Shown piece by piece: positions 3,030-64,000 of a stretch of DNA of 64,000 bases. A program made the translations under genes and the position numbers. Under the pieces are notes generated by a model, which was not told the origin of the DNA, did not search any database, and saw only the letters and a list, made by a program, of their open reading frames with translations. Position 1 is the stretch's first letter, and each line of letters starts with the position of its first letter. This stretch comes from an uncultured virus (IMG/VR IMGVR_UViG_3300000255_000001) (lineage: Duplodnaviria > Heunggongvirae > Uroviricota > Caudoviricetes), in the IMG/VR virus record IMGVR_UViG_3300000255_000001; one strand, given 5' to 3'.

Positions 3030-3917
3030 ATGACCGACGCCTACAAAGACGCCGGTGTAGACATTGCTAAAGCAGATCAATTAGTTAAACAACTTGGCTT
3101 TTCTGACTATGGAGCCGTTATCAATCTCGGCGACACTAAAATAGTCCTCAGCACCGACGGCGTAGGAACAAAAATACTAGTAGCAGAGCAATTAAACGTT
3201 TTTGATACCATTGGTATTGATTTAGTTGCTATGTGTGCCAACGACATTCTATGTCACGGCGCAAAACCTCATTCATTCTTAGACTATTACGCAATGGGTA
3301 GTCTTAATTTAGAAAAAAGTAAAGAAATACTATCTGGTATACAAACAGGATGTGAATTAGCAGGATGTAAATTAGTTGGTGGCGAGACTGCTGAGATGCC
3401 TGACGTATATGAAGGGGATAAGTTTGACCTTGCTGGATTCTGTATGGGCGTTGTTATAGATGAGTTACCTAAAAAAGACTTAATGAAAGAAGGTGATGTT
3501 ATCATTGGTATCCCTAGCAGTGGCCCACATAGTAACGGATATAGTTTGTTACGTCAATTATATGGTGGAATTTATCATATAAACATTTTAAGACCAACTC
3601 GCATTTATACTGACGATGTTTTACCCATTTTACCACTTATTAAAGGTGCGGCTCACATTACAGGAGGTGGAATTCACGGTAATTTGCCTCGAATACTGCC
3701 AGATCACTTAAATTACAATATCAATATTGAATTAAAAGACTGGTGGTCAGCATTGTTCACTTCTACCCAAAATTTTCCCATGAATATGAGCAAACACGAG
3801 TTTGAATGTGTGTTTAATTGTGGCTGGGGTATGTTATTAGTGGTAGATGTTGAGAATATAGATCAAATATCGGAAAAAGTGACTGATTCGGCTGTGCTGG
3901 GCACTTTGACTGCTTGA
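3030..3917 (+). CDS. purM: phosphoribosylformylglycinamidine cyclo-ligase (AIR synthetase)
   Basis: YKDAGVDI, STDGVGTK, GIDLVAMCAND, GGETAEMP, SSGPHSNGYSL, AHITGGG, FNCG.G. Confidence 0.95.
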   Translation: MTDAYKDAGVDIAKADQLVKQLGFSDYGAVINLGDTKIVLSTDGVGTKILVAEQLNVFDTIGIDLVAMCANDILCHGAKPHSFLDYYAMGSLNLEKSKEILSGIQTGCELAGCKLVGGETAEMPDVYEGDKFDLAGFCMGVVIDELPKKDLMKEGDVIIGIPSSGPHSNGYSLLRQLYGGIYHINILRPTRIYTDDVLPILPLIKGAAHITGGGIHGNLPRILPDHLNYNINIELKDWWSALFTSTQNFPMNMSKHEFECVFNCGWGMLLVVDVENIDQISEKVTDSAVLGTLTA

Positions 3918-45730: not shown

Positions 45731-48382
45731 ATGTATATTGATGCTTATTTAGATAAAGAACAAGAATGTATTAACGTTGCAGAACGAATTAACGGCAAGC
45801 GTCAATACAAACAGTATCCTGTAGAGTATGTTTTCTATTATGATGATATAAAAGGAAAGCATAAAACTATACACGACAGACCTGTTAGTAGATTTTATTC
45901 TAAAAACAAAAAAGAGTTTAATAGAGAACTCAAAATTAATAGTAGGAATCAAACTTATGAAAGTGACATTAATCCGATCTTTAGGTGTCTTGCTGATAAT
46001 TATCTTGACGCCGATTCTCCTATTCTTAATATTTGCTACGTAGACATTGAGGCCGACTTTGATCCTGAAAAGGGATTTAGTCAACCAGAAGATCCTACTG
46101 CATCAGTAACTGCAATTACAGTATATCTCGGTCAATTACAACAATTGATAACTTTAGCATTGAAACCAAAAACAATGCATGAGGATATAGCACAAGGTGT
46201 TGTAAAGAACTTTGAAAATACATTTGTCTATAACAGCGAAGCACAACTACTACAAACATTTTTAGACTTAATAGAAGATAGTGATATCATAACTGGCTGG
46301 AACAGTGAAGGGTATGACTTGCCATATCTCGTTAATAGAGTTATTCGTGTATTAAGTAAAGATGATACAAGGCGCTTTTGTTTATGGGATCAATTCCCAA
46401 AAAAATTCTCATATGAGAAATACGGGGGCGAACAAATAAGTTTTAAATTGACAGGCAGAGTGCATTTAGACTATTTAGAATTGTATCGCAAATATACATA
46501 TCATGAGATGCACAGTTATAGTCTCGACACAGTAGCGGAGTATGAATTACAAGACAAGAAAATTCCATATGAAGGCACGTTAGACCAATTATACAATACA
46601 GACTTTGAAAAGTTTATAGAGTATAACAGGCAGGATGTTATGCTTATTGTGCGTATGGATGAGAAATTAAGATTTATTGACCTAGCAAACGAACTGGCAC
46701 ATCAAAACACTGTGCTATTACCCACAACAATGGGGGCAGTAGCAGTAACAGAGCAAGCGATTATTAATGAAGCACACGCACAAGGTTTAGTAGTTCCTAA
46801 TAAACCTGACAGGGATGACAGCAAAACGGTTACGGCCGCTGGTGCATATGTAGCAACGCCCATGAAAGGATTACATCATTGGATTGGCTCAGTGGATATA
46901 AACAGTCTGTATCCAAGTGCTATACGAGCATTAAACATGAGTCCAGAAACTATCATAGGACAATTGCGTCCTACTATGACGCAGAATCATATCAATAGTG
47001 TTATTGCATCAGGCAAAACTCAATCAGATGGCTGGGAAGGACAGTTTGGCTCGTTAGAATATGAAGCAGTAATGAACAGAGAGTCAAATACAGAAATTAC
47101 TATTGACTGGGAAGATGGCAAGGAAGAAGTTAAAACAGCATTAGATATACACGGTATTGTGTTTGGTAAGCATGGCAACAAATTACTATTAAGTGCAAAT
47201 GGCACATTATTTAGGAATGATAGAAAAGGAATTATTCCTGGATTGTTGGAAAAGTGGTATGCTGAACGTAAGCAAATGCAAACAAAATTGCACAAAGCCA
47301 AGACACAAAAAGATATTGTATTTTGGGATAAAAGGCAACTTGTAAAGAAAATTAATCTAAATAGTTTATATGGTGCATTGTTAAATCCATATTGTAGATT
47401 CTTTGACATGCGTTTAGGACAAAGCACTACATTATGTGGCAGAACTATCACAAAGCACATGGCAAGTTATATAAACAAAATTATAACAGGCAATTATGAG
47501 CATGATGGTGATGCTATTATATATGGCGACACAGACAGTTGTTATTTCTCAACATATGATATACTTAAAGAGGATATAGATGCAGGCAACATTCCGTGGG
47601 ATAAAGAAACAGTTATTGAATTGTATGATAACGTAGCAGAGGAAGTTAATAAATCATTTCCAGCATTTATGGCACAGAGTTTTAACTGTACAAAGGAATT
47701 AGGTGACATTATTAAGTGTGAGCGTGAGATTGTTGCAAGTAGTGGTTTGTTTATAACTAAGAAGCGATATGCTACTCTTATATATGATTTAGAAGGTAAA
47801 CGTGTAGATCAAGACGGCCCTGGCAAGGTAAAAGCAATGGGCATGGACTTAAAGAGATCAGATACGCCAGTAATTATGCAAGACTTTCTAAATATACTAT
47901 TGCTAGATGTTTTAACAAATATAAAAGAAGCAGAGATTATAGAGAAAATTAAAGCATTTAAGTTTGACTTTGCTGACAAACCAGGATGGGAAAAGGGAAC
48001 TCCGAAACGGGTAAATAATTTAACAATGTATACTAAACGTGAAGAACGCGAAGGTAAAGCAAATATGCCAGGGCATGTCAGAGCGGCAATGAACTGGAAT
48101 AACCTGCGGGATATGAATAGCGACAAGTATAGTATGCAAATAATGGATGGCCAAAAGACTATAGTATGTAAGTTAAAGAGCAATCCAATGGGCATAACCA
48201 GTGTAGCCTATCCAATTGATGAAGTAAGGTTACCAGACTGGTTTAAAGAACTTCCATTTGATCATATTGCTATGGAAGAAACAATTATCGATAAAAAAAT
48301 AGGGAATCTATTAAATGTTATGAAGTGGGATTTGCGACAAGGCACATCACGCAGTACATTTGATGATTTATTTGAATTATGA
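45731..48382 (+). CDS. family B DNA polymerase (gp43-like)
   Basis: Exo DIE, GWNSEGYD, YNRQD; Pol DINSLYPS, KKINLNSLYG, YGDTDS, KKRY. Confidence 0.97.
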   Translation: MYIDAYLDKEQECINVAERINGKRQYKQYPVEYVFYYDDIKGKHKTIHDRPVSRFYSKNKKEFNRELKINSRNQTYESDINPIFRCLADNYLDADSPILNICYVDIEADFDPEKGFSQPEDPTASVTAITVYLGQLQQLITLALKPKTMHEDIAQGVVKNFENTFVYNSEAQLLQTFLDLIEDSDIITGWNSEGYDLPYLVNRVIRVLSKDDTRRFCLWDQFPKKFSYEKYGGEQISFKLTGRVHLDYLELYRKYTYHEMHSYSLDTVAEYELQDKKIPYEGTLDQLYNTDFEKFIEYNRQDVMLIVRMDEKLRFIDLANELAHQNTVLLPTTMGAVAVTEQAIINEAHAQGLVVPNKPDRDDSKTVTAAGAYVATPMKGLHHWIGSVDINSLYPSAIRALNMSPETIIGQLRPTMTQNHINSVIASGKTQSDGWEGQFGSLEYEAVMNRESNTEITIDWEDGKEEVKTALDIHGIVFGKHGNKLLLSANGTLFRNDRKGIIPGLLEKWYAERKQMQTKLHKAKTQKDIVFWDKRQLVKKINLNSLYGALLNPYCRFFDMRLGQSTTLCGRTITKHMASYINKIITGNYEHDGDAIIYGDTDSCYFSTYDILKEDIDAGNIPWDKETVIELYDNVAEEVNKSFPAFMAQSFNCTKELGDIIKCEREIVASSGLFITKKRYATLIYDLEGKRVDQDGPGKVKAMGMDLKRSDTPVIMQDFLNILLLDVLTNIKEAEIIEKIKAFKFDFADKPGWEKGTPKRVNNLTMYTKREEREGKANMPGHVRAAMNWNNLRDMNSDKYSMQIMDGQKTIVCKLKSNPMGITSVAYPIDEVRLPDWFKELPFDHIAMEETIIDKKIGNLLNVMKWDLRQGTSRSTFDDLFEL

Positions 48383-49378: not shown

Positions 49379-50110
49379 ATGAAAGATATTTTAGCAGATG
49401 TAATTAGTCATACACACGCCTTAGGCTATTTAGAAATTATTAAGGTAACCGGCACAACAACGGATACGACAATAGAGTCTATGGCTGAGGATAGGAGTGT
49501 CGTGTTACAAGCAGAAACACACGACCCAGTGTCAGAGTTTATAGGCACGTTTGGTATGCCAAACCTTAATAAACTAGACACGTTATTAAAGATTCCTGAA
49601 TATAAGGAAGATGCGAAGTTAGAACTTAGTCAACAGGAACGCAATGGTGAAGTGGTTCCTACAGGTATTCACTTTGAGAACAAAGCAGGTGACTTCCAAA
49701 ACGATTACAGATTTATGAACGCTGAAATTATAGAAAACAAACTTAAAAGCGTAAAGTTTAAAGGCGTCGAATGGGATATTGAGTTTGAGCCAAATACTCC
49801 AGCAATTATGCGTTTTGGCTATCAAGCACAAGTAAACTCAGAGGAAGATGTATTTACAGTTAAGACTGATAAAAAGAATTTAATATTTGAGTTTGGTGAT
49901 CATAGTACACACGCAGGACAGTTTGTGTTTGAAACAAGTATAGGTAGTTCATTAAAAACAGGATGGACGTGGCCAGTACAGCAAGTGTTAAAGATTTTAC
50001 ATTTAACTGGCGACAAAGTAATGTCATTTAGCGATAAAGGCGCATTGCGGGTACTAGTAGATAGCGGTTTAGCAAAATACAATTATATATTACCAGCACA
50101 AAGTAAATGA
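49379..50110 (+). CDS. DNA polymerase sliding clamp (gp45/PCNA-like)
   Basis: 243 aa with two-domain clamp-like pattern (SMAEDRSVV, FGMPNL, Y.YILPA). Near polB, with a clamp loader in the window. Confidence 0.7.
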   Translation: MKDILADVISHTHALGYLEIIKVTGTTTDTTIESMAEDRSVVLQAETHDPVSEFIGTFGMPNLNKLDTLLKIPEYKEDAKLELSQQERNGEVVPTGIHFENKAGDFQNDYRFMNAEIIENKLKSVKFKGVEWDIEFEPNTPAIMRFGYQAQVNSEEDVFTVKTDKKNLIFEFGDHSTHAGQFVFETSIGSSLKTGWTWPVQQVLKILHLTGDKVMSFSDKGALRVLVDSGLAKYNYILPAQSK

Positions 50111-51585
50111 GAGAAAACCTTGTAGAAACACAGGGAAACTATGCCATCTACTTACCAGCCATTAGTAGTTTTTATGCCGCATATGTAGGCAAACAACGAT
50201 ACGAAGAATTTGTACCCCAAGATAGAATTCCGTCTCGTTTTACTAGTGGTATAGAAGGCTTAAACTTCCTTAATATGCGTGAAGGATATTTTAAGTATCC
50301 TTGGGCATTGTATTCTGCGGGTCATGCTGATATGAATTTAGATAAGTTCTCTGCTAAAGAGGACATGGTCCGCAATAGAGCACAAGACACTGTATTAGTA
50401 GGTGACAGCGGTGGATTCCAAATATCCAAGGGTGTGTGGATGGGAGAATGGCTGGAACCATACGGTGTTGATAAGAAAACTGACGAAATACGCGAAAAAG
50501 TATTACGGTTTTTAGAAGGCACATTTGATTACTCAATGGTTCTTGACTTACCTACGTTTAGTGTTACTCACTCACATTTACACGGACTTGATACTTGGCA
50601 AAAATGCTTGCAAGGCACGTTAAACAATAATGATTACTTCGCACAAGCACGTGAGCCAGGTGCTACAAAGTTTTTAAACGTATTACAAGGCAACAATTGG
50701 AAGCAATGTGAGGAATGGTATGAGGCCGTTAAACCATACAGCACAGGCGAGAAGGCAAACTTTGAGGGATGGGCATTAAGTTCTATCAATAAAAAGGATG
50801 TAGAGATTGCTATACGCAGACTATTGAAAATGCGTGAGGATGGATTTTTAGGTGAGACAGAATGGATGCATTACTTGGGCACAGGTGAATTGCTTTGGAG
50901 TATTGTGCTCACATCATTTCAACGTGAAATACGTGATAAAATAAACCCAGACATTATACTATCATATGATTGTGCATCACCGTTTTTAGCAACAGCATAT
51001 GGCACGATGTATACAAGCATACACACTGACCATTTACGCAAGGGTTGGACTTATAGAATGCTTAAAGCAGTAGATGACAAAAAGTATTCAACAGATACAA
51101 GAATATTTGATTACAATATTGAATTTCCTGACAGAGATTGGGAACCAAGTCCTATAAGCGAAAGAATACAAATGAATGACGTGTGTCCGTATGGCCCAGG
51201 TGATTTAAATAAAATAGGAAAGGAAGGAAGAACAAGTTGGGATAGTTTTAGTTATGCATTACAAATGGGACACAATGTTTACTTGCATATTTTAGCAACA
51301 CAGCGAGCAAATGAATGTTATGATCAAGGAATAATGCCTAAACAATTAATAGCACCAAATGGCGCTCACATAGCAGAAGTGATTCACGAGATATTTTCTA
51401 AGAAAGATCATGCTAATGCCATTGCTGAAGTAGAGAAATATAGTAGATGGTTTACACGCATCCAAGGGGTAAATACTTCTGAAGCCTATGCAGATGAATT
51501 AGGCATAGAACCAATGGGAAAGGATGAAGTGATGGCCAAGGAAGTATATAGTGCAGAGGAGTCATTTCATAACTTATTTGAGTAA
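50107..51585 (+). CDS. dpdA: TGT-fold 7-deazaguanine DNA transglycosylase (DpdA2-like)
   Basis: GDSGGFQ, MVLDLP, LNVLQG, WMHYLG, SYDCASPF. Clustered with folE/queD/queE. Confidence 0.8.
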   Translation: MRENLVETQGNYAIYLPAISSFYAAYVGKQRYEEFVPQDRIPSRFTSGIEGLNFLNMREGYFKYPWALYSAGHADMNLDKFSAKEDMVRNRAQDTVLVGDSGGFQISKGVWMGEWLEPYGVDKKTDEIREKVLRFLEGTFDYSMVLDLPTFSVTHSHLHGLDTWQKCLQGTLNNNDYFAQAREPGATKFLNVLQGNNWKQCEEWYEAVKPYSTGEKANFEGWALSSINKKDVEIAIRRLLKMREDGFLGETEWMHYLGTGELLWSIVLTSFQREIRDKINPDIILSYDCASPFLATAYGTMYTSIHTDHLRKGWTYRMLKAVDDKKYSTDTRIFDYNIEFPDRDWEPSPISERIQMNDVCPYGPGDLNKIGKEGRTSWDSFSYALQMGHNVYLHILATQRANECYDQGIMPKQLIAPNGAHIAEVIHEIFSKKDHANAIAEVEKYSRWFTRIQGVNTSEAYADELGIEPMGKDEVMAKEVYSAEESFHNLFE

Positions 51586-51728
51586 TGACACTTTTAGAGT
51601 ATATACAGCAACGTATAGAACTAAACAAACAACATAATAATATAATTCGATTTCCTATAGAGAAACGAATCAATGATATAGAGGAGCAAAAACATGGCAG
51701 TAAAGAAAAAGAAAGCAAAAGCAGTTAA
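51585..51728 (+). CDS. possible small hypothetical protein (47 aa)
   Basis: TAATG-coupled to dpdA, MTLLEYIQQRIELN... Confidence 0.35.
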   Translation: MTLLEYIQQRIELNKQHNNIIRFPIEKRINDIEEQKHGSKEKESKSS

Positions 51729-52335
51729 GAACGCGGCCGCGGATAAGGATACAGAAGCAGGTCCAAAACCACAACGCCCACGTGGCCCGCAACCAAGCGG
51801 TGATCCACTATATGATAATAACATTCATATGTTTATGACTGACTTTAATGAAGAATCATGTGGTATGGCAATTAGGTTTATACTTGAGAAAAACGTATTA
51901 CCTACAAAATTAAAACCAAAATATCTTACACTAATGATTAATAGTCCTGGTGGTGAAGTTGCACACGCATTTGCTTTAATAGATGTTATGAAGGGATCTT
52001 CTATTCCTGTACGCACAATAGGATTAGGTATGATTGCTTCTTGTGGCGTACTGACATTTATGGCAGGGCAAAAAGGCTATAGAACAATTACACCAAATAC
52101 TAGCATATTAAGTCACCAATATAGTTGGGGCAGTAGAGGTAAAGAACACGAATTATTCGCAGTTGTGCGAGAATTTGAAATGAGTACAGAACGTATGTTA
52201 TCACATTATAAAAAATGTACTGGACTTACTGAAAAGAAGATTCGTGAAGTATTGTTACCGCCACAAGATGTATGGCTTAATGCTGACGAGGCAGTAAAGT
52301 ATGGTGTTGCGGATAAGATTAAATCAGTATACTGA
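51694..52335 (+). CDS. clpP: ATP-dependent Clp protease proteolytic subunit
   Basis: INSPGG, G.IASCG (Ser), LSHQ (His), DVWL.ADEAVKYGVADKI. Confidence 0.9.
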   Translation: MAVKKKKAKAVKNAAADKDTEAGPKPQRPRGPQPSGDPLYDNNIHMFMTDFNEESCGMAIRFILEKNVLPTKLKPKYLTLMINSPGGEVAHAFALIDVMKGSSIPVRTIGLGMIASCGVLTFMAGQKGYRTITPNTSILSHQYSWGSRGKEHELFAVVREFEMSTERMLSHYKKCTGLTEKKIREVLLPPQDVWLNADEAVKYGVADKIKSVY

Positions 52336-52601
52336 TGGAAATCGGAAGGTTTAATATTAATAAAGTTACTGTCCGTGATAGATGGATAGGAGAAACATCG
52401 GGTAAAACTGTAGAAGGCGGCGCACTAAACGCCAGCTACAGAACCGTTGAAGCAGTTGCTATGCTATGCAACCATCTGGGCACATTAGGTCTGATATATG
52501 GCGAAGATTTCACTTGGGACGGTATTGACGCCAAAGGAAATGTAGTGATACAATACAAAGAAGGACACTCATCTTTACTTGACAATATCAAGTGGTCATA
52601 G
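52335..52601 (+). CDS. hypothetical protein
   Basis: 88-aa ORF, TGATG-coupled. Confidence 0.55.
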   Translation: MEIGRFNINKVTVRDRWIGETSGKTVEGGALNASYRTVEAVAMLCNHLGTLGLIYGEDFTWDGIDAKGNVVIQYKEGHSSLLDNIKWS

Positions 52602-52607
52602 TATAAT
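52579..52607 (+). promoter_or_regulatory. sigma70-type promoter
   Basis: TTGACA-N17-TATAAT, with ATG 6 nt downstream. Confidence 0.8.
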
Positions 52608-52613
52608 TACGTT

Positions 52614-52952
52614 ATGACATATATAGTTAATGAACTTTGCGTTAAATGTAAATTAACGGACTGCGTAGAAGTATGCCCGGTGGACTGCTTTTACGAAGGC
52701 GAAAACATGCTAATTATACATCCAGACGAGTGTATTGACTGTGGTATATGTGAGCCTGAATGTCCCATTGAAGCCATTGTACCAGACAATGAATACACGC
52801 AAACTGGCAGTATAGATTGGGCAGAATTCAATGACAAATACTCTAGAATATGGCCCAACATAACAGAGCAAAAGGACCCAATGCCCGACCACAAATCGTG
52901 GGAAGGGGTAGATGGAAAAGAAGAACACGTATCAACTGAACCTGTGAGTTAA
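52614..52952 (+). CDS. fdxA: 7Fe ferredoxin
   Basis: [43 protein letters not shown]. Confidence 0.93.
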
Positions 52953-52954
52953 TT

Positions 52955-53401
52955 ATGAATGAAGTATTCAACATAGACGATCATAGACGTCAATTAAGGA
53001 CAGAAAAAGTCCAACAAATGCCCAAGATGATTTGGGTTAAATTCCAAAAAGAAGGCATACACAAATACCCTGCCGCTTTGGAAGACCCCGCACTAGCAAC
53101 TGGTGATGAGTATGATGTATCCTTTCTTGGATATCCGCATCGCCACACATTCCACTTTAGAGTTACTATACAAGTATTCCACGATGACAGGGATATTGAA
53201 TTTATCCAGTTTAAGCGTTGGATGGAAAACTTGTATGCAGGCACATTACAACTGGACTACAAGTCCTGTGAGATGATTGCTGATGATCTTTATATGGCTA
53301 TTAACGACAAATACCCAGATAGAGAAGTATGGATCGAAGTAGGCGAAGATGGCGAAAACGGCTGCCATTGCGTCTATCCTATAACCTTAGCCGCAGAATA
53401 A
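52955..53401 (+). CDS. dpdL: T-fold QueD-like protein, probable CDG decarboxylase
   Basis: LGYPHRHTF (LxxxHRHxF instead of the QueD CxxxHGH), DRDIEF, SCEMIA, EDGENG. Confidence 0.7.
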   Translation: MNEVFNIDDHRRQLRTEKVQQMPKMIWVKFQKEGIHKYPAALEDPALATGDEYDVSFLGYPHRHTFHFRVTIQVFHDDRDIEFIQFKRWMENLYAGTLQLDYKSCEMIADDLYMAINDKYPDREVWIEVGEDGENGCHCVYPITLAAE

Positions 53402-53406
53402 TAACA

Positions 53407-53667
53407 ATGAAAGAAGCAGTTATAAAGGTCTTTGAAGATCTAGATGAATACCGCAATTTTTGTAGGGAGTTTGGGCGGGTATTTAACGAGGCACATCTAT
53501 ATAAGGGAAAAACTCCTTATGATGATTTCCTTAGATGGAAAGATACGGGCAAGGCACGTCAATGGCCTGGCTATCCCTTTAACCAATATAAAAAGCGATT
53601 CGATAACAAGCGTCATGACAACAGAGAGTACAAAAAACGCGAATACCCAAATTCACGAAATTCTTAA
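53407..53667 (+). CDS. hypothetical protein
   Basis: VFEDLDEYRNFCREFG..FNEAHLY, basic tail. Confidence 0.6.
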   Translation: MKEAVIKVFEDLDEYRNFCREFGRVFNEAHLYKGKTPYDDFLRWKDTGKARQWPGYPFNQYKKRFDNKRHDNREYKKREYPNSRNS

Positions 53668-54052
53668 AGAAGTTCAAAAGGAACATCGCGTATGGGGATA
53701 TTACAGAGTTCTAGGCGACTTCAACGAAGTTAAAGTAAAAGAACTAGTAGTTAGTCCTAGTATGTGTTTAAGTTTTCAAAAACATGAATATAGAAACGAA
53801 TTTTGGTGCGTTAATAGTGGCGTAGCAAGGGTGATACTTAGTGAAGATTACCCACGGGGTAGTAAAACATTAGAGCAAGATTTAATAGAAGATAATAGCA
53901 CTACTGTTATATTACATGAAACTGAAACATTAGTTATACCAGCAGATACTTGGCATCAATTAATTAATCCCTCAAGACAGGAATTAAGCATTGTAGAAGT
54001 ACAATATGGTGACAAATGTGACGAAGAAGATATTACAAGATTATACCAATGA
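53615..54052 (+). CDS. cupin, type II phosphomannose isomerase C-terminal-like
   Basis: RVWGYY, KVKELVV.P..LSFQKH..RNEFW, WHQLINP, IVEVQYG..EEDITR. Confidence 0.85.
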   Translation: MTTESTKNANTQIHEILKEVQKEHRVWGYYRVLGDFNEVKVKELVVSPSMCLSFQKHEYRNEFWCVNSGVARVILSEDYPRGSKTLEQDLIEDNSTTVILHETETLVIPADTWHQLINPSRQELSIVEVQYGDKCDEEDITRLYQ

Positions 54053-55116
54053 ATACAATTTATATTATACCCATTGAACCTATAGATCAACGCTATACAA
54101 AACAATGGTACGATAATATTCCATCACTTCTCAATGAGAAGATAGCCGAACACAATTTAGAATATTGTGTAGAAACTATTGATGGGGTTACTGTTGAAGA
54201 TAAAACCACCAGCGGTGCGTTCCTTGACTTCGGAAAAACAAATGAGTACAAGGCTAGCCAAACCGCGCAAGTAAGTGAATTGTTTAGTAAGGGTCTCATC
54301 CTCCCCGACGACAAATTCCTTATTACTGATGCTTGGAACTTCATAGTAACGCCCATCAAATATATGAGCGAACTGCTTGACATACCTGTAGAGATACACG
54401 GTATTTGGCATGCAGGCGCATACGATCCAACTGACATATTGGGTTTAAAGATGTCCAAACCATGGCCACACTTACAAGAAAAAGCGTGGTATATGGCATG
54501 TGACTATAATTATTATGCAAGTAATTTCCACAAAAACATATTTTTACACAACTTGGAAATACCTGACATATATCACAACAAGGCGATACGTAGTGGGCAA
54601 CCACATAATCCTATTGTAAAACAATTACAACAGTATTATGATAACCCGAAACAAGATACTATTATGTGGCCGCATCGTTATAACGAGGATAAACAGCCTG
54701 AAATTGTAGAAGATCTTAATTTACGTCCGTATAGTGTTTTAATTACTCAGCAGTTAGATTTAAGTAAAGAAAAATACTACGAAGAAATGGGGCGAGCAAA
54801 GGCGGTGTTTAGTTGTAGCCTACATGAGAATTTGGGTATTAGTATGATGGAAGGATGTTTAGCAGGTGCTATTCCTATCGTTCCGGACAGAGCAAGTTAT
54901 AGTGAAATGTACAAGGATGTATTTAAGTATCCAAGTATATGGACTGAAAGTTATGGTAACTATCTAGAGCATAAAAAAGATTTAGAAAATTTTGTTGTGG
55001 AATTATGTGATAACTATGACATTGTGAAAAAAGAATACTTGGATGAACAAGTAGAGGTATTAACACATAATTTCTTAAGTGCCGATATTATGTTTGACAA
55101 CATTCTAGACATATAA
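54049..55116 (+). CDS. GT-B (GT4-like) glycosyltransferase
   Basis: WPHRYNEDKQP, SLHENLGISMMEG..AGAIPIVPDRASYSE. Confidence 0.82.
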   Translation: MNTIYIIPIEPIDQRYTKQWYDNIPSLLNEKIAEHNLEYCVETIDGVTVEDKTTSGAFLDFGKTNEYKASQTAQVSELFSKGLILPDDKFLITDAWNFIVTPIKYMSELLDIPVEIHGIWHAGAYDPTDILGLKMSKPWPHLQEKAWYMACDYNYYASNFHKNIFLHNLEIPDIYHNKAIRSGQPHNPIVKQLQQYYDNPKQDTIMWPHRYNEDKQPEIVEDLNLRPYSVLITQQLDLSKEKYYEEMGRAKAVFSCSLHENLGISMMEGCLAGAIPIVPDRASYSEMYKDVFKYPSIWTESYGNYLEHKKDLENFVVELCDNYDIVKKEYLDEQVEVLTHNFLSADIMFDNILDI

Positions 55117-55176
55117 ATATTAGTAGAGTTACACAAAGGTAACTGATGTAAAACAACAACCGAGTAAGGAAGGAAA

Positions 55177-55857
55177 ATGAGTTATAACAAAACAAAGACT
55201 GACCCTGAGTTGGGTCAGCAAGTCCACGCACATTTATCAGCATTAGGCCTTGAAACGCCTGTCACCTCAAATCTGTATACTCTGTCAAGAACAGATAAGA
55301 TTGAAGCAATTGAAAGCAGAATGCGAGAGGTTCTTGAGATTGTGGGGATGGATTTATCAGACGACAGTTTACTTGACACGCCTAAACGTGTTGCTAAAAT
55401 GTATGTCAACGAAATATTTTGGGGATTACATCCAGATACATTCCCTAAATGCACAGCAGTAGCAAACAAAATAGACTACGATGAGATGGTTGTAGAAAGG
55501 AACATACAAGTGTCTTCTTTTTGCGAGCATCATCTAGTTGCTATAGACGGTAAAGCACACGTAGGTTATATTCCAAATCAAAAAGTATTAGGTTTAAGCA
55601 AGTTAAACAGGATTGTAGAATACTTTTCTAAACGACCACAAATACAAGAACGTTTAACAGAACAAATTTATCACGCACTCAGTTATATCTTAGATACACC
55701 AGAAGTTGCTGTGATAATTGATGCCGCTCACTTCTGTGTTAAGCATAGAGGAGTAGAGGACACAGGTTCATTTACTATTACAAGCAAACTAGGTGGGCGG
55801 TATAAAACAGATACAGCACACAGAGCAGAGTTTATGCAATTGGTACACAGAGTATGA
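55177..55857 (+). CDS. folE: GTP cyclohydrolase I
   Basis: DTPKRVAKMY, SFCEHH, GLSKLNRIV, RPQIQERLT, HFCVKHRG. Confidence 0.97.
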   Translation: MSYNKTKTDPELGQQVHAHLSALGLETPVTSNLYTLSRTDKIEAIESRMREVLEIVGMDLSDDSLLDTPKRVAKMYVNEIFWGLHPDTFPKCTAVANKIDYDEMVVERNIQVSSFCEHHLVAIDGKAHVGYIPNQKVLGLSKLNRIVEYFSKRPQIQERLTEQIYHALSYILDTPEVAVIIDAAHFCVKHRGVEDTGSFTITSKLGGRYKTDTAHRAEFMQLVHRV

Positions 55858-56408
55858 CTAAAATTATAGATACTGATACGCAAGATGTTAAGTCATATGT
55901 ATTAGATATTTGTTATCAAATGAATACAGACAACTGGACACCTGATTATATAGTGGGCATACCGCGAGGTGGTTTATTACCTGCGGTAATGCTAAGTCAT
56001 TATCTTAATCGTCCTATGGTTATACAAGATGTTAGGTTGCGCGATAATGTACAACAACAATCTAATCCTGAAATACCATTAGATGCACTGGAAGGCAAAC
56101 AAATTCTTATCATAGATGATATAAATGACACTGGCGCAACTTTCCAATGGATGGTAAATGATTGGGAGAACACTATAGAGCCACATTTATATGGCGAGGC
56201 AGTACATATGCCAGCGCTGGCATATGTACATATGCCAGCAGAAAACAAAGCATTGTGGCGGCGGAATATTAGATTTGCCGTATTAATTGACAATGAAGGT
56301 AGTGAGTTTAAGGATGTAAAATATTCTGCTCGTTCAATTAACAAAATAGAAGACCCATCGTGGGTTGTATTCCCATGGGAATGTTGGTGGTATTATAGGA
56401 ATTGGTAA
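55854..56408 (+). CDS. purine phosphoribosyltransferase (XGPRT-like)
   Basis: IVGIPRGGLLPA, ILIIDDINDTGAT, WVVFPWE. Confidence 0.88.
   Translation: MTKIIDTDTQDVKSYVLDICYQMNTDNWTPDYIVGIPRGGLLPAVMLSHYLNRPMVIQDVRLRDNVQQQSNPEIPLDALEGKQILIIDDINDTGATFQWMVNDWENTIEPHLYGEAVHMPALAYVHMPAENKALWRRNIRFAVLIDNEGSEFKDVKYSARSINKIEDPSWVVFPWECWWYYRNW
56202..56239. repeat. tandem inversion-duplication (overlapping 28-bp and 24-bp perfect palindromes)
   Basis: GTACATATGCCAGC-GCTGGCATAT-GTACATATGCCAGC. Confidence 0.9.
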
Positions 56409-56488
56409 TGAAACAAAGAACACAATACATATTAGGCATAATAGTAGTAGTAATATTATGTTTTGATTTGGCAGGATGTCAATTATGA
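56408..56488 (+). CDS. 26-aa ORF with lipoprotein signal peptide
   Basis: MKQRTQYILGIIVVVILCFDLAGCQL, TAATG-coupled. Confidence 0.35.
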   Translation: MKQRTQYILGIIVVVILCFDLAGCQL

Positions 56489-56679
56489 TGGAATTTGGAG
56501 TGGCATTTGGTTTAGCATTGGCAGTATATACACTATGGGAATTATACCACAGAGAAATGACGTTTGGACGTAAAATGCTATGGGCAATTGGTATGATATG
56601 TTTTATGCCCTTTGGATCAATGCTTTATTTTCTTATAGTAATACACCCAGTTTTTCATAATCATGATAGGAAAATGTAA
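56476..56679 (+). CDS. two-TM PLDc_N-like small membrane protein
   Basis: KMLWAIGMICFMPFGSMLYFL. Confidence 0.55.
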   Translation: MSIMMEFGVAFGLALAVYTLWELYHREMTFGRKMLWAIGMICFMPFGSMLYFLIVIHPVFHNHDRKM

Positions 56680-57236
56680 TGGAAAATATAATTAGTGGTT
56701 TTGTATATGTAGGTAGAGAAGTATTAGAAATAGTATTCTTAACCTATTTAATAATAGGTTCACTAACTATTACAATGCCAATAATATTATCTGCTATAGC
56801 AGGACTTATTACAGGCGTTAGTGGAGGTTATATTCTAGGTGAGATACTTGAACCGTATGAGTGGGCAACGTACGGTGTGCTCGCATTATTAATGTTGTAT
56901 CTGTTTTTTAATTCGAAAAACATACAGGAACATATTAGTAAACATGTTAAAGAAGCACGGAAAGGTATTGGAGTATTTGCAGGTGCAAGTGCGATATTTA
57001 TTATCTATTTCCGTGAGAGTATGGAGATTAATACATTCTTGTTTATGGATACAGGAGACTTTACATCTAAGTTAATTGGTGCTATAATAGCAATAGTGGT
57101 CGTAGTAATAGCAACACCAATAATAATGAAAAGAAAAATAATACAACATAATTTATTTAATATTACAAGATATACATTTTTATTATTTGGTATTTGGTTT
57201 GCATATGAAGCGTTAGAACACGCACATATATTATAG
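56679..57236 (+). CDS. FTR1/EfeU-like iron permease, short form
   Basis: About 6 TM with two RExxE motifs (REVLE, RESME). Confidence 0.65.
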   Translation: MENIISGFVYVGREVLEIVFLTYLIIGSLTITMPIILSAIAGLITGVSGGYILGEILEPYEWATYGVLALLMLYLFFNSKNIQEHISKHVKEARKGIGVFAGASAIFIIYFRESMEINTFLFMDTGDFTSKLIGAIIAIVVVVIATPIIMKRKIIQHNLFNITRYTFLLFGIWFAYEALEHAHIL

Positions 57237-57246
57237 GAGATATGTA

Positions 57247-57723
57247 ATGAGTGACGTTCCAGAGTTTACATCAACAAAGAGTTTTTATAATTTTCCATGT
57301 GCTCATAGACAACATAAGCACGACGGAAATTGTCATTTGATACACGGCTATAGTCGTAGTTTTCATTTTGTATTTGGTGCACAGACAATGACAAAGGAAG
57401 GGTTTCTTGTCGACTATGGTGACTTGGATGGAGTAAAACAATGGTTAGATGAAAATTATGATCATACATTTGTAGTTGATCATGATGATCCGTGGATGGA
57501 AACATTCCAAGCAATGCACGATGCAGGAGTATGTAAGTTAATTGTGCAAGAAGAAGGTCCGGGTATGGAAGGCACAGCATTCCGTATTTGTATGTGGGCA
57601 GATGAATGGTTGCGGGAACGAACAAGAGGACGAGCATGGGTTATTAGTGTAGAAGCAAGAGAAAATGACAAGAACAGTTCCATTTATACTAACCCTGACG
57701 CTGGCTTTAAAGGTTGGCTATAA
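57247..57723 (+). CDS. queD: 6-carboxytetrahydropterin synthase
   Basis: CAHRQ, CHLIHGY, VDYG, YDHTF, ENDKNS. Confidence 0.9.
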   Translation: MSDVPEFTSTKSFYNFPCAHRQHKHDGNCHLIHGYSRSFHFVFGAQTMTKEGFLVDYGDLDGVKQWLDENYDHTFVVDHDDPWMETFQAMHDAGVCKLIVQEEGPGMEGTAFRICMWADEWLRERTRGRAWVISVEARENDKNSSIYTNPDAGFKGWL

Positions 57724-58886
57724 TAAATTGCAATACAGGATTTCAGCCATTAGTTGAATGTTGGCTTGGTGACTGTTATCGTCCTGACTTTTTTGATTAT
57801 GTTGATAACAAAAAAGTAAAAAATATTCTTAGACAAATAACAGAAGAAACTATAGAAGATTTAGATAACATACGTGAAATACTAGAGAATTATAATGTCA
57901 CAGTTAAACGTCCAAGAATATTCGATTTTGATCATATTTACAACATATATAAAGTCGGCGGTGCGTGTGTTGATGATGAGTTAAATGTAAATATTGATGA
58001 AGTTTTAAGATATTTCCCACGATTAATAGATAAGCAAGGGGTTCAGAATTGGCTCAATTCTTATGATATATATGCTGACCCCGGAACATTGACTCGGCCA
58101 CCATTATTTCCCCGTGATGATCAAATTGTTGTAGATGATACAATGTATAAACTTAGGTCAATTGATCGGGAGTTATATTCTAAATCATATGGAGCTGGCT
58201 GTTCTTCGGCTATATTTTATGAAAACTTATTTGAAGAAATTGAAGGATATGACGGAGAAGTAATTAAAGAGTTTCCAATTAATATTGAAAATTGTATCAG
58301 TAACGGACCAAACATTATTAGATTAGGAGACACTATTATTTTAGATGGATTACCTAGTCCAACATACAGATATTTTAAAGAACGATTTAAAGATTATAAA
58401 ATCATAACTGCTTTCAATGATGGGCATAGTGATGGAATTTATAATCCAATTAAACCTGGTGCTTGGATTAGCAATGGAGAAGCTTTAAATTTTAAAAAAT
58501 ACTTTCCAAATTGGGATGTATTTTACTTGCCTGATGCTCAATGGCCGGATATGTCTCCATTTTTGGAGATTAGAGAAAAAGTAAATGGAAAATGGTGGGT
58601 GCCAGGTGAAGAGCACAATGATGAATTAATTGATTTTGTGGATGCGTGGTTTTCAGAATGGGTAGGCTTTTGCGAGGAAACTGTATGGGACGTTAATGTG
58701 TTAGTGATCAACCCAGAAACTGTATTATGTATTACAGAGAACAAAGATTTGTTTAAGTGGTTTAGATCACACAATATAGAACCCATAGTAGCACCGTTTA
58801 GACATAGATTCTTTTGGGATGGTGGATTACATTGTTTAACACTAGACATACACAGAGAAGGCGGCATAGAAAGTTATGCAAGGTAA
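57714..58886 (+). CDS. amidinotransferase (glycine/inosamine-phosphate type, pentein fold)
   Basis: FQPLVECWLG, PRDD, GHSDG, DVNVLVI, FWDGGLHCLTLD. Confidence 0.8.
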   Translation: MAIINCNTGFQPLVECWLGDCYRPDFFDYVDNKKVKNILRQITEETIEDLDNIREILENYNVTVKRPRIFDFDHIYNIYKVGGACVDDELNVNIDEVLRYFPRLIDKQGVQNWLNSYDIYADPGTLTRPPLFPRDDQIVVDDTMYKLRSIDRELYSKSYGAGCSSAIFYENLFEEIEGYDGEVIKEFPINIENCISNGPNIIRLGDTIILDGLPSPTYRYFKERFKDYKIITAFNDGHSDGIYNPIKPGAWISNGEALNFKKYFPNWDVFYLPDAQWPDMSPFLEIREKVNGKWWVPGEEHNDELIDFVDAWFSEWVGFCEETVWDVNVLVINPETVLCITENKDLFKWFRSHNIEPIVAPFRHRFFWDGGLHCLTLDIHREGGIESYAR

Positions 58887-59712
58887 TGAAAAAATGAGAT
58901 TAGCTGATGAAGATTTAATTAACAGAAAAACGGACAAACTTATTGTAATACCTTTTCATCCATGGACAGGTGCTAGATTTATTGTTAACTGCCTAGGCAT
59001 GCATCCTAAAGTAATATTACCGTGCAAAGTTTTGGCGAATGCAAAAATGAACGGAAAATTGACGCCTGAGAAAAGTTATAATTGTATTAAAGCATTGTTT
59101 TTATTAAGTATGAAAAAAAAACAACATATGGAATTTATAGATCAAAATATTACTGGTGGATTTGATGCTAAAGATTTACGACTTGATCCTGACTTTGACT
59201 TAAAACACGTAAGGGGAGAAGTATTCGGTCATTGCGAAAAACCTGATGATCCCAATTCCTCAATTAGATCAGAATTGAATGTGTGGTCTATGTTAACAAA
59301 GCAGGATATCTATTATTTTGCCTTAGTACACTCTATCATGAGTCATGATCCATATTTTAAATATGAAAACCATAAAACTATTTTCCTCAAAAATTATAAA
59401 TGGATTTTGGATATAAGACAGAAACCCTGCGAGTATACCGAAAACTCGAATCTTGCGCGAAAATCAAAACATTATCACGTATTCGATATGTCAAGCATTC
59501 TAGATGAATATAAGTTTAAAGATTCTATAACTATTATGTTAAGTTATTTAGACCTAGAGTCTAACAAGATGCGTTGGGACTTGCTGGAAGAACTCAGAGT
59601 ATTATGGCTACAAGTATTACCAATTGGTTTTCCAGATTGGGAGAGATTGTATGAAATCGATCTGCCATGGATGGTGCACCGTAGATCTCTACAACGCTTA
59701 AAAGGTACATAG
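58876..59712 (+). CDS. hypothetical protein with sulfotransferase-like N-terminal loop
   Basis: IVIPFHPWTGARFIVNCL, similar layout to the 11011 protein. Confidence 0.45.
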   Translation: MQGNEKMRLADEDLINRKTDKLIVIPFHPWTGARFIVNCLGMHPKVILPCKVLANAKMNGKLTPEKSYNCIKALFLLSMKKKQHMEFIDQNITGGFDAKDLRLDPDFDLKHVRGEVFGHCEKPDDPNSSIRSELNVWSMLTKQDIYYFALVHSIMSHDPYFKYENHKTIFLKNYKWILDIRQKPCEYTENSNLARKSKHYHVFDMSSILDEYKFKDSITIMLSYLDLESNKMRWDLLEELRVLWLQVLPIGFPDWERLYEIDLPWMVHRRSLQRLKGT

Positions 59713-59718
59713 AAAGTT

Positions 59719-59994
59719 ATGCGCGATGACTTGGAAGATATTAAAGAGCTTGCTCAAAGATGTTTAGATAACCTTAATGAGCGGCATTATTATAGGTCTC
59801 CCTATGAAGCAAATACCATTGACAATCTCAAAAATATTGTTATAATAGTAAATGAGTATCCTGAAAGAGAGAAAGAACGCGAAAAAGAACGGCTTTTAGC
59901 AAAGAGATTTATTATCGGTCCACACTACATGGTCACGCATGAAGAATGGTTAGAAGAATGGAATAAATCTAAAGGAAAGAAAAATGAAAGTTAG
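59719..59994 (+). CDS. hypothetical protein
   Basis: 91-aa ORF containing an internal TTGACA-N16-TATAAT (59819-59846) that could drive queE. Confidence 0.45.
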   Translation: MRDDLEDIKELAQRCLDNLNERHYYRSPYEANTIDNLKNIVIIVNEYPEREKEREKERLLAKRFIIGPHYMVTHEEWLEEWNKSKGKKNES

Positions 59995-60808
59995 ATATAC
60001 TGAAATATTCTACAGCCTGCAAGGCGAAGGTAGATGGGTAGGGACTCCGAGTGTTTTCCTACGTTTATTTGGTTGTAACTTCAAATGCCAAGGCTTTGGA
60101 ATGCCAGCAGGACAATTAAGCGAAGAACGTAATTGGATTAATCCAGATGATTATACATCAATGGATGGATTACCATTAGTTAAAACAGGTTGTGATAGTT
60201 ATGCTAGTTGGGATCCACGTTTTAAACGGTTTGCTACAACAACTACGATAGACGATGTAGTAATAGATTTATTAAGCATAACACCACGCAACCAGTGGGA
60301 AGAAATACATTTAGTTGTAACAGGTGGTGAGCCTATGCTATGGCAACGTATATATCCGACATTATTCAAGGACCCAATGATGTCTAGTTTAAAGCATATG
60401 ACATTTGAGACAAATACCACACAGCCATTACGATGGAATGACTTTTTCGCAAGCACAAACAGGCCATGGATCACTTGGTCCTGTAGTCCTAAACTATCAA
60501 CAAGTGGCGAAAAGTGGTCGGATGCTATTAATCCAGAGATAGCGAAAGAATACTCTGCTGTTCAGAAATCAGATATGTATTTTAAATTCGTGATAGATAA
60601 TGAAGAGGGTATTTATGAAGTGTTGGAGGCTGTTGAGGCATACAGAAGTGCTGGAGTAGAATGTCCAGTGTATGTAATGCCAGTAGGCGGATGCTATGAA
60701 GATTACTCTTTTAATTCACGCCACGTTGCAGATCTAGCAATGAAATATGGACTAAAATACAGTCCAAGACTACATTCCGACTTATTCGGAAACGCATGGG
60801 GAACGTAA
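59984..60808 (+). CDS. queE: 7-carboxy-7-deazaguanine synthase (radical SAM)
   Basis: EIFYSLQGEG, PSVFLRLFGCNFKC...GCDS, TGGEP, FETN, SPKL, SPRLH. Confidence 0.93.
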   Translation: MKVRYTEIFYSLQGEGRWVGTPSVFLRLFGCNFKCQGFGMPAGQLSEERNWINPDDYTSMDGLPLVKTGCDSYASWDPRFKRFATTTTIDDVVIDLLSITPRNQWEEIHLVVTGGEPMLWQRIYPTLFKDPMMSSLKHMTFETNTTQPLRWNDFFASTNRPWITWSCSPKLSTSGEKWSDAINPEIAKEYSAVQKSDMYFKFVIDNEEGIYEVLEAVEAYRSAGVECPVYVMPVGGCYEDYSFNSRHVADLAMKYGLKYSPRLHSDLFGNAWGT

Positions 60809-62633: not shown

Positions 62634-63605
62634 ATGAGATATCTATTAATTGATACTGCTAACATGTTTTTTAGAGCAAGGCATGTTGTAGCAAAGAGTG
62701 TTGATTCTGACACTAAACTAGGACTTGCTATACACGTGACGCTAAATAGTGTTGCTAAAGTATGGCGAGAATTTAAAACTGACCACGTTATCTTTTGTTT
62801 AGAAGGACGTAGTTGGCGTAAAGATTATTACGAGCCTTACAAAAAGAATAGGGTCGTAGCACGGCAAGCACTTACAGAAAGAGAGCAGGAAGAAGATGAA
62901 CTCTTTTGGGAAGTGTTTACTGAGTTTGTTACATTTTTAGAAAATAAAACAAATTGCTCAGTAATACAAAATAGCGTATTAGAAGCAGATGATTTAATTG
63001 CGGGATTTATTCAAAATCACCCGTTTGATGAACACTATATTATAAGCAGTGATAGTGATTTTTATCAACTTATAACAGATAACGTTAAACAATACAATGG
63101 CATTACCGATCAACTAATAACAATTGATGGTATTTTTAATAAGAAAGGCGACATGGTCATAGATAAAAAGACCAAAGAGCCAAAAGAAATACCCAACCCC
63201 GAGTGGTTATTATTTGAAAAGTGTATGAGGGGTGATGCTAGTGATAACGTTTTTAGTGCGTATCCACGTATTAGAAAGAACAAATTAAAAGAAGCATTTG
63301 AAGACAGAACCAATCAAGGTTTTGCTTGGAACAATATGATGCTTCAACGTTGGGTTGATCATAACAATATTGAGCATAGAGTAAAGGATGATTACGAGCG
63401 CAATAAAAGACTCATTGATTTAATGGAACAACCAGACAATATTAGAGAACAAATGAATGAAACTATAAACGGTATTACAGCGAAGAAAAATACTAATGTA
63501 GGGATTCATTTTATGAAGTTTTGTGGCAGACATAACCTACAGAGATTGGGCGATGACGCTCAAAGATTTAGTGAAATTTTAAACTCAAGTTACTCGGAGG
63601 CGTAG
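62634..63605 (+). CDS. rnh: 5'-3' exonuclease / T4 RNase H-like (FEN family)
   Basis: LLIDTAN, SWRKD.Y..YKKNR, EADDLI, ISSDSDF.QL, GDASDNV. Confidence 0.88.
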   Translation: MRYLLIDTANMFFRARHVVAKSVDSDTKLGLAIHVTLNSVAKVWREFKTDHVIFCLEGRSWRKDYYEPYKKNRVVARQALTEREQEEDELFWEVFTEFVTFLENKTNCSVIQNSVLEADDLIAGFIQNHPFDEHYIISSDSDFYQLITDNVKQYNGITDQLITIDGIFNKKGDMVIDKKTKEPKEIPNPEWLLFEKCMRGDASDNVFSAYPRIRKNKLKEAFEDRTNQGFAWNNMMLQRWVDHNNIEHRVKDDYERNKRLIDLMEQPDNIREQMNETINGITAKKNTNVGIHFMKFCGRHNLQRLGDDAQRFSEILNSSYSEA

Positions 63606-64000
63606 TGTCAGGAATAGTAGTATTACTATCTGGTTCAGGAACAAACTTGCAGGCAATTCTAGACGCAAAATTGCCTGTTAAGTATGTTTTGTCTGACAAA
63701 CCGAATGCCTATGGATTAACAAGAGCAGAAGAGGCAGGAATACCTACATACGTATTGTCTAGCCTTAAACGATTAGAACATAAAATAACAAATGTATGTG
63801 AAGAACATAAAATAGATTTAATAGTACTCGCCGGCTTTATGCGACTCTTGAGCCCTGGTTTTGTACAACGCTGGGAATCTCATATAATAAACATTCATCC
63901 ATCCGTACTTCCAGAGTTCAAGGGGGCGGGTGCTATTAAACAAGCATTTGACGCAGGAATTAATGAGACCGGCGTTACAGTACATTATGTAGACGCGGGA
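63605..64000 (+). CDS. purN: phosphoribosylglycinamide formyltransferase (3'-truncated by window edge, not in ORF track)
   Basis: GTG start overlapping the rnh stop. VVLLSGSGTNLQAIL, SDKPNAYGL.RA, LAGFMRLL, INIHPSVLP.FKG, ETGVTVHYVD. Confidence 0.88.
   Translation, partial: MSGIVVLLSGSGTNLQAILDAKLPVKYVLSDKPNAYGLTRAEEAGIPTYVLSSLKRLEHKITNVCEEHKIDLIVLAGFMRLLSPGFVQRWESHIINIHPSVLPEFKGAGAIKQAFDAGINETGVTVHYVDAG

Follow-up and report, generated by a model that had tools for sequence, protein, structure and literature searches.

The 64,000-nucleotide stretch analysed here (the window) comes from an uncultured tailed virus (Caudoviricetes; IMG/VR record IMGVR_UViG_3300000255_000001) and carries, between positions 49,379 and 60,808, a 7-deazaguanine modification cluster into which a gene for a glycosyltransferase (GT) is set. 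FolE, QueD and QueE convert GTP to 7-carboxy-7-deazaguanine (CDG), and DpdA-family enzymes exchange bases. Given the genes of this module and the way in which the GT travels with DpdA in unrelated phages and in bacterial islands, the phage DNA likely bears a sugar-decorated purine. The step that we favour, and to which we give an even chance, is the addition of the sugar by the GT to a deazaguanine that DpdA has already inserted into DNA. All sugar-bearing DNA bases of which we know are pyrimidines.

Linkage of the glycosyltransferase to DpdA

IMG/VR was searched with three anchors, DpdA, DpdL and the GT. All 27 DpdA-anchored loci that extend at least 6 kb downstream (80 were kept from 598) contain both the GT and dpdL, and none contains QueC or QueF. 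Of the DpdL-anchored loci, 80 were kept from 600 and 48 reach 6 kb or more downstream; the GT is present in 46 of these, the exceptions being L072, which has a short DpdA3, and L081. Of 47 GT-anchored loci, 37 reach 6 kb or more upstream, and DpdA and dpdL are each found in 36 of them. These loci are not independent: a single jumbo-phage group accounts for most of them, and copies of the window's phage are among them. A GTDB genome scan gave 33 loci, many of which resemble binned phage contigs; 28 hold DpdA, and the remaining five are short or cut.

Among 28 cultured-phage records with a DpdL match, a GT lies close by in 18: eleven of the PA5oct group, two of ACP17, and BUDD, X1, BCSR5, Phosso and BUCT-ZZ01. 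The linkage persists across the differing gene orders of ACP17, Paride/PA5oct, BCSR5, X1, BUCT-ZZ01 and Phosso, and the GT is kept beside long PA5oct-type and DpdA2-type enzymes alike. The other ten records, with no GT nearby, are five Cellulophaga phages, Ahp1, D479, RHph_I1_18, Bakedbeans and MA9V-3; the six that were inspected all match the phiST-type DpdA3 profile, which five of the six had seeded. A whole-record profile search, run with no positive control, found the GT in none of five records (phiST, Ahp1, D479, RHph_I1_18 and Vibrio phage 2.275.O), in agreement with tblastn. A lack of synteny between the GT and dpdA/dpdL was one of the results that would have counted against the original prediction; since the linkage is conserved across unrelated phages, the prediction holds on this point.

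The bacterial loci refine the partnership. Eight alphaproteobacterial islands (L157, L160-L165, L169), from Pelagibacterium, Sulfitobacter, Azospirillum, Roseobacter, Shimia and Rhizobiaceae, combine a YhhQ/VUT-like transporter with the GT and DpdA, and no dpdL, folE, queD or queE was found within these loci. Seven Magnetospirillum-type loci (L166-L168, L170-L173) read GT-dpdL-dpdA-queD. Because eight islands do without dpdL, the constant partner of the GT is DpdA more than DpdL; the GT had been tied to the dpdL cluster, and that link stands, as the weaker of the two. The acceptor of the GT is probably common to base-making and base-importing systems. The inspected islands adjoin integrases and defence genes, Lamassu and PD-T4-4 among the latter, and a full-length QueC match is missing in three of the five island hosts tested; they are possibly a new cellular deazaguanine marking or defence system. 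Islands often also hold an uncharacterized protein of 540-585 residues and a second GT4. A YhhQ/VUT transporter also occurs in 18 of the 209 GT loci of phage type (L009-L012, L020, L023, L026-L028, L030 and others), though these phages make their own base.

A GT that simply rides with the cluster might act on another acceptor, such as a FolE/T-fold pterin, a different base, or a glycan of the virion or of the host surface, leaving plain 2'-deoxy-7-deazaguanosine (dDG) or its 7-carboxy form (dCDG) in the DNA. We regard this as improbable: the eight islands retain GT and DpdA with neither folE nor a T-fold gene in the locus, the linkage survives differing gene orders in unrelated phages, and 27 active-site positions are identical in the GTs of the window, Paride, Phosso and five islands.

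Gene content and predicted synthesis of the base

Every gene that had been named in the interval (a DpdA with the fold of tRNA-guanine transglycosylases (TGT), FolE, QueD, QueE, a T-fold protein with LxxxHRHxF, a cupin and the GT) is present where it was placed, all on the plus strand:

49379..50110, +, sliding-clamp-like protein; 35% identity to a Phosso gene with a sliding-clamp annotation; PHROG 12062, no assigned function
50107..51585, +, DpdA; 492 residues, long PA5oct-type guanine transglycosylase with a TGT-fold model
52955..53401, +, DpdL; T-fold with LxxxHRHxF, proposed CDG decarboxylase
53407..53667, +, open reading frame (ORF) of 86 residues; no Pfam match, found in close relatives only
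53615..54052, +, cupin resembling type II phosphomannose isomerase (PMI), likely start 53615; PF01050 E 4e-22; predicted sugar supply, accessory
54049..55116, +, GT4-like retaining GT; 355 residues, R210, K215 and E260-x7-E268, donor domain closest to the QTMAN family
55177..55857, +, FolE, GTP cyclohydrolase I; NF006824 298 bits against a cut-off of 202
55854..56408, +, purine phosphoribosyltransferase-like protein; PF00156 E 4e-16
57247..57723, +, QueD, 6-carboxytetrahydropterin (CPH4) synthase; CxxxH motif, PF01242 (PTPS) E 6e-19, PHROG 2389
59984..60808, +, QueE, radical S-adenosylmethionine (SAM) CDG synthase; PHROG 2076 E 4e-50, NCBIfam QueE models match below cut-off

The gene order between dpdL and folE agrees in part with what had been described: cupin and GT are coupled by an ATGA overlap at 54049-54052, the 86-residue ORF intervenes after dpdL, and GT and folE, 60 bases apart, are not coupled. 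The window belongs to G000, a viral record of 126,750 bases that is 44% complete, and a sister record, G001 (322,647 bases, 90% complete), encodes cluster proteins that were 100% identical wherever compared. The search of the remaining genome for QueC and QueF, which had been suggested, found neither in G000 nor in G001. A phage QueC query matched its own source record and nothing in G000, G001, G003 or Paride, and QueC was found in none of ACP17, Paride, Phosso, BCSR5 and BUCT-ZZ01 (0 of 5). A candidate QueC at G000:1660-1848 was rejected as a weak PF06508 match to an N-terminal PP-loop only, and the QueF candidates proved to be matches to FolE. The fdPreQ1 system (DpdN) was likewise set aside; a PurN-like gene lies at 63605, but QueC and QueF were not found.

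The window's DpdL is 61% identical to that of ACP17 and 31.5% to that of phiST (tblastn), and LxxxHRHxF is kept in 179 of 182 distinct homologs. In the available text of Cui et al. 2023 (PMC10516641), DpdL is defined as a QueD-like protein with this motif. The decarboxylation of CDG by DpdL, which the original prediction had given as established, is called a proposal there, and no dDG was detected in E. coli expressing ACP17 or phiST dpdL plus dpdA. The window holds FolE, QueD, QueE, DpdL and a DpdA with invariant D100 and D288, and no QueC was found; a QueC-less DpdL/DpdA deazaguanine system acting on DNA is the most likely reading of this set.

Several other genes lie within or beside the cluster. 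A protein of about 170 residues is encoded between dpdA and dpdL in 120 of the 209 GT loci and in ACP17 (L247:7400-7930; ACP17, L048:6239-6724); it never shares a locus with the cupin (0), is not in G000 and has no Pfam or Atlas match. The purine phosphoribosyltransferase-like gene is a frequent neighbour (20 of 27 DpdA-anchored loci). Unrelated genes inside the interval encode ClpP, a ferredoxin, the phosphoribosyltransferase, an FTR1-like protein and an amidinotransferase-like ORF. The last (57714-58886) has a related ORF at G000 54267-55430, both of PHROG 25854 with no assigned function, and the cluster copy is kept in close relatives only; we take the pair to resemble amidinotransferases. 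The PurN-like formyltransferase (63605-64000), together with an ORF at 3030-3917 that presumably resembles PurM, could feed the use of GTP through purine synthesis.

DpdA and DNA as its probable target

Although the 492-residue DpdA sequence has no Pfam, PHROG or NCBIfam match, its identity is clear from the DSGGFQ motif, with D100, and from its predicted model (pLDDT 89), for which the best Foldseek E value is 2e-7 and all 48 of the structures listed are TGTs. D100, D147, Q194 and D288 are invariant across 42 relatives, and we take them to be the catalytic and base-binding residues of TGT. The protein is 36-40% identical to the long DpdA of PA5oct/Paride. Among DpdA proteins that carry a published label, its nearest is the PA5oct enzyme, which DS1 of Cui et al. 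2023 (PMC10516641) assigns to DpdA3; the short DpdA3 of phiST and Ahp1 is only 17-21% identical to the window's protein, so this label spans two different groups. Assignment to DpdA2 was tried and rejected, with 16-18% identity to the DpdA2 of ACP17, X1, BCSR5 and BUCT-ZZ01 and no strong match of the window's group to a profile of these four. Of the two proteins proposed for a check, DpdL is confirmed and DpdA lies outside DpdA2.

A family-B polymerase gene and then the clamp-like gene precede the cluster, an arrangement shared with the jumbo phages PA5oct/Paride and Phosso, and the clamp-like gene overlaps the start of dpdA through ATGA. The C-terminal peptides of DpdA (51560-51585) and of the DNA polymerase (48350-48382) are alike. 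The pattern [LF]xx[LF]F, a loose one searched with no shuffle control, ends four ORFs of G000, including these two, and occurs within the last 60 residues of 112 of 172 long DpdAs and of no short DpdA3. As judged from the sequence, this shared tail would likely be a clamp-docking motif. The short phiST-type DpdA3 genes (L140:10386-11664, L137:10441-11891, L138:10695-12097, L141:10312-11579, L072:480-1933) adjoin a nucleotide kinase, and often also dUTPase or MazG, and encode no polymerase-like tail, which hints that G is fully replaced at the level of nucleotides rather than after replication.

The phiST system is among the closest known ones. It shares with the window a QueC-less FolE-QueD-QueE-DpdL set, the DpdL motif and an inserting enzyme of the TGT family; unlike the window, where a DpdA of 492 residues is accompanied by the GT, it has a DpdA3 of 259 residues (21% identity in the alignment), an adjacent nucleotide kinase, no polymerase-like tail and no GT that we could find. 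In phiST DNA, dDG replaces all G and bears no sugar (Cui et al. 2023, PMC10516641). Of the phages in DS1 of that work, PA5oct, ACP17, BUDD and BCSR5 share the window's module including the GT, which in ACP17 and PA5oct separates dpdA from dpdL as listed there; the word "glycosyltransferase" occurs 0 times in the supplement, and the "glycosyl" passages of the available main text concern transglycosylases. Our literature search found no nucleoside analysis of these four phages, nor any glycosylated deazaguanine in DNA or mention of a DpdA-linked GT, most subscription papers lying outside its coverage. With the GT, the DpdL/DpdA system has a real and widespread extension that has apparently gone unreported.

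The DNA of PA5oct is resistant to five restriction enzymes, from which a modified G was deduced; as far as the available text goes, mass spectrometry is reported for phages F8 and 14-1, whereas the modified G of PA5oct/Paride rests on the digests (10.1101/2025.10.29.685425). Sugars on pyrimidines are well known from other phages, among them the arabinosylated 5-hydroxycytosine described in the accessible part of PMC13326640. Pyrimidine DNA GTs act on a hydroxyl that comes from a thymidylate-synthase homolog or from TET; neither thymidylate synthase nor a dCMP hydroxymethylase that could supply such an acceptor was found in G000 or G001. The alpha- and beta-GT of T4, for their part, act on hydroxymethylcytosine.

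The glycosyltransferase, its proposed acceptor and its sugar

The GT is modelled as a GT4-like GT-B fold. Its own Pfam match is weak (PF00534, E 0.013; 31 of 49 family members match), while E260/E268 and R210/K215 are kept in at least 90% of 115 homologs; the E-x7-E element and the Arg/Lys pair are presumably the retaining motif of GT4-like enzymes and the ligands of the donor phosphates. Among 30 matches to the GT in 61 bacterial genomes, ranks 2-12 all fall to the QTMAN family (40.7-90.3 bits), and nine lower-ranked matches that were examined are ordinary GT4 enzymes at no more than 38 bits. The donor domain is 28% identical to that of a bacterial QTMAN member over 149 residues. QTMAN (GTDC1, PF12038) mannosylates queuosine, a 7-deazaguanine, in tRNA (PMC11755703, in the part accessible to us). 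By profile, the nearest cellular family is itself GT4-like, and the base that it sugars is a 7-deazaguanine within a nucleic acid. A second GT4 flanks dpdA in Synechococcus phage BUCT-ZZ01 (L139:7367-8710) and has homologs in four Roseobacteraceae islands, which suggests a disaccharide.

In the scheme that we favour, FolE, QueD and QueE would turn GTP into CDG, which DpdL would likely convert to 7-deazaguanine. DpdA, docked on the clamp, would likely exchange this base for guanine in newly copied DNA behind the replication fork, DNA being the putative target of both DpdA and the GT. The GT would then act on the inserted base from a nucleoside diphosphate-sugar with retention of configuration, and would attach the sugar within the major groove, on position 7 or beside it, either to C7 of 7-deazaguanine or to the CDG carboxyl if DpdL leaves it. 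The sugar, which may differ by lineage and may here be supplied with the help of the PMI-like cupin, would protect the DNA against nucleases and glycosylases of the host.

A number of observations weigh against this scheme. Most viral loci represent one jumbo-phage group with an inherited gene order, and about seven lineages are independent. L081, a DpdL-anchored locus with a long DpdA, has no GT within 10 kb, nor is there one elsewhere in its record, which is 19% complete, and in Phosso dpdA lies about 170 kb away from GT-dpdL. Five distant GT matches (25% identity) occur in phages with no dpdL match; a single case was inspected, and it shows no dpd gene up to 8 kb away and lacks several residues of the GT family. 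In Vibrio phage 2.275.O a long DpdA occurs together with QueC/QueF, and the search described above found no GT there, which implies that a long DpdA does not require the GT. Plain dDG accounts equally well for the resistance of PA5oct to restriction. Moreover, 7-deazaguanine has no hydroxyl, which leaves the acceptor unexplained, and it offers only C7, C8 and N2; the linkage would have to be unusual, or DpdL act differently here. With no queuosine pathway in the phage, the cyclopentenediol acceptor of QTMAN is not available to its GT.

Two further points on this side bear on a QTMAN-like enzyme that would mannosylate queuosine made by the host, in tRNA of phage or host, the DNA carrying plain dDG. 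The main point for this explanation is that G000 has three tRNA genes with GUN anticodons, for Tyr, Asp and Asn, which keeps it alive, as do QTMAN being the nearest cellular family and the PMI-like cupin and phosphomannomutase (PMM) neighbours, which would suit GDP-mannose. The acceptor domain QTMAN_N is matched by none of 49 plus 64 GT family members and in none of five records, whereas genuine QTMAN members score E < 1e-46; the likeness may thus reflect the donor domain only, which cuts against the tRNA enzyme as well. The GT also tracks DpdA and not QueC/QueF or tRNA genes, and a DpdL branch would be expected to divert CDG from queuosine. We consider this the least probable of the explanations.

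The order of events might instead be reversed, the GT sugaring the free base or nucleotide and DpdA inserting the finished glycoside, with a glycosylated deazaguanine in DNA as the end product all the same. The failure of ACP17 dpdA plus dpdL to give a product in E. coli may be explained by a requirement for the GT, but it is weak evidence for this order, because the phiST pair was equally without product and phiST has no GT. QTMAN modifies a base already within tRNA, and the near relative L055, with 74% identical DpdA and 88% identical DpdL, carries in the same slot a GT of 20% identity, a swap that fits a step after insertion better. Insertion of a ready-made glycoside is therefore unlikely, if slightly less so than a GT working on an unrelated acceptor.

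The cupin had been treated as a core part of the module, which the survey does not bear out: it occurs in 1 of 27 DpdA-anchored loci (that of the window's own phage) and 3 of 48 DpdL-anchored loci, as well as in 28 of 37 GT-anchored loci, and is lineage-specific. Of the proposal that the phage carries a deazaguanine glycosylated by GT and cupin, what holds is the QueC-less DNA-acting system and the GT linkage; glycosylation of the base is a step that we infer. A second cupin, fused to a nucleotidyltransferase, is encoded elsewhere in G000, and in relatives such a fusion precedes the GT. Neighbours among the 209 GT loci include an epimerase (42), a sugar dehydrogenase (35) and PMM (20). A PIG-L deacetylase adjoins the GT in BCSR5 and X1, and at L047:6657-7568, immediately before the GT, a PIG-L domain and DpdL form one fusion protein, an arrangement that recalls the GT4-deacetylase pairs operating in mycothiol and bacillithiol synthesis. 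The idea of a lineage-dependent sugar draws on these PIG-L, epimerase, dehydrogenase and PMI/PMM genes and on the swapped GT subtypes.

The GT-DpdA module is common: about 4,600 IMG/VR stretches are estimated to match DpdA patterns, and the module is found in cultured phages including PA5oct/Paride. The larger picture, whose chances we judge to be evenly balanced, is that a glycosylated purine serves as a genetic letter of very abundant phages, made by a QTMAN-related GT, perhaps a C-glycoside at C7 or an acyl glycoside of CDG, with sugars that depend on the lineage, and that alphaproteobacterial islands mark their own DNA by means of GT, DpdA and a base importer. The glycosylases Dag1 and Dag2 target dDG phages (10.1101/2024.12.24.630238, available text). 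If the picture is true, a sugared deazaguanine would be a second layer on a modification that dedicated bacterial glycosylases attack, and this attack would give a reason for the layer.

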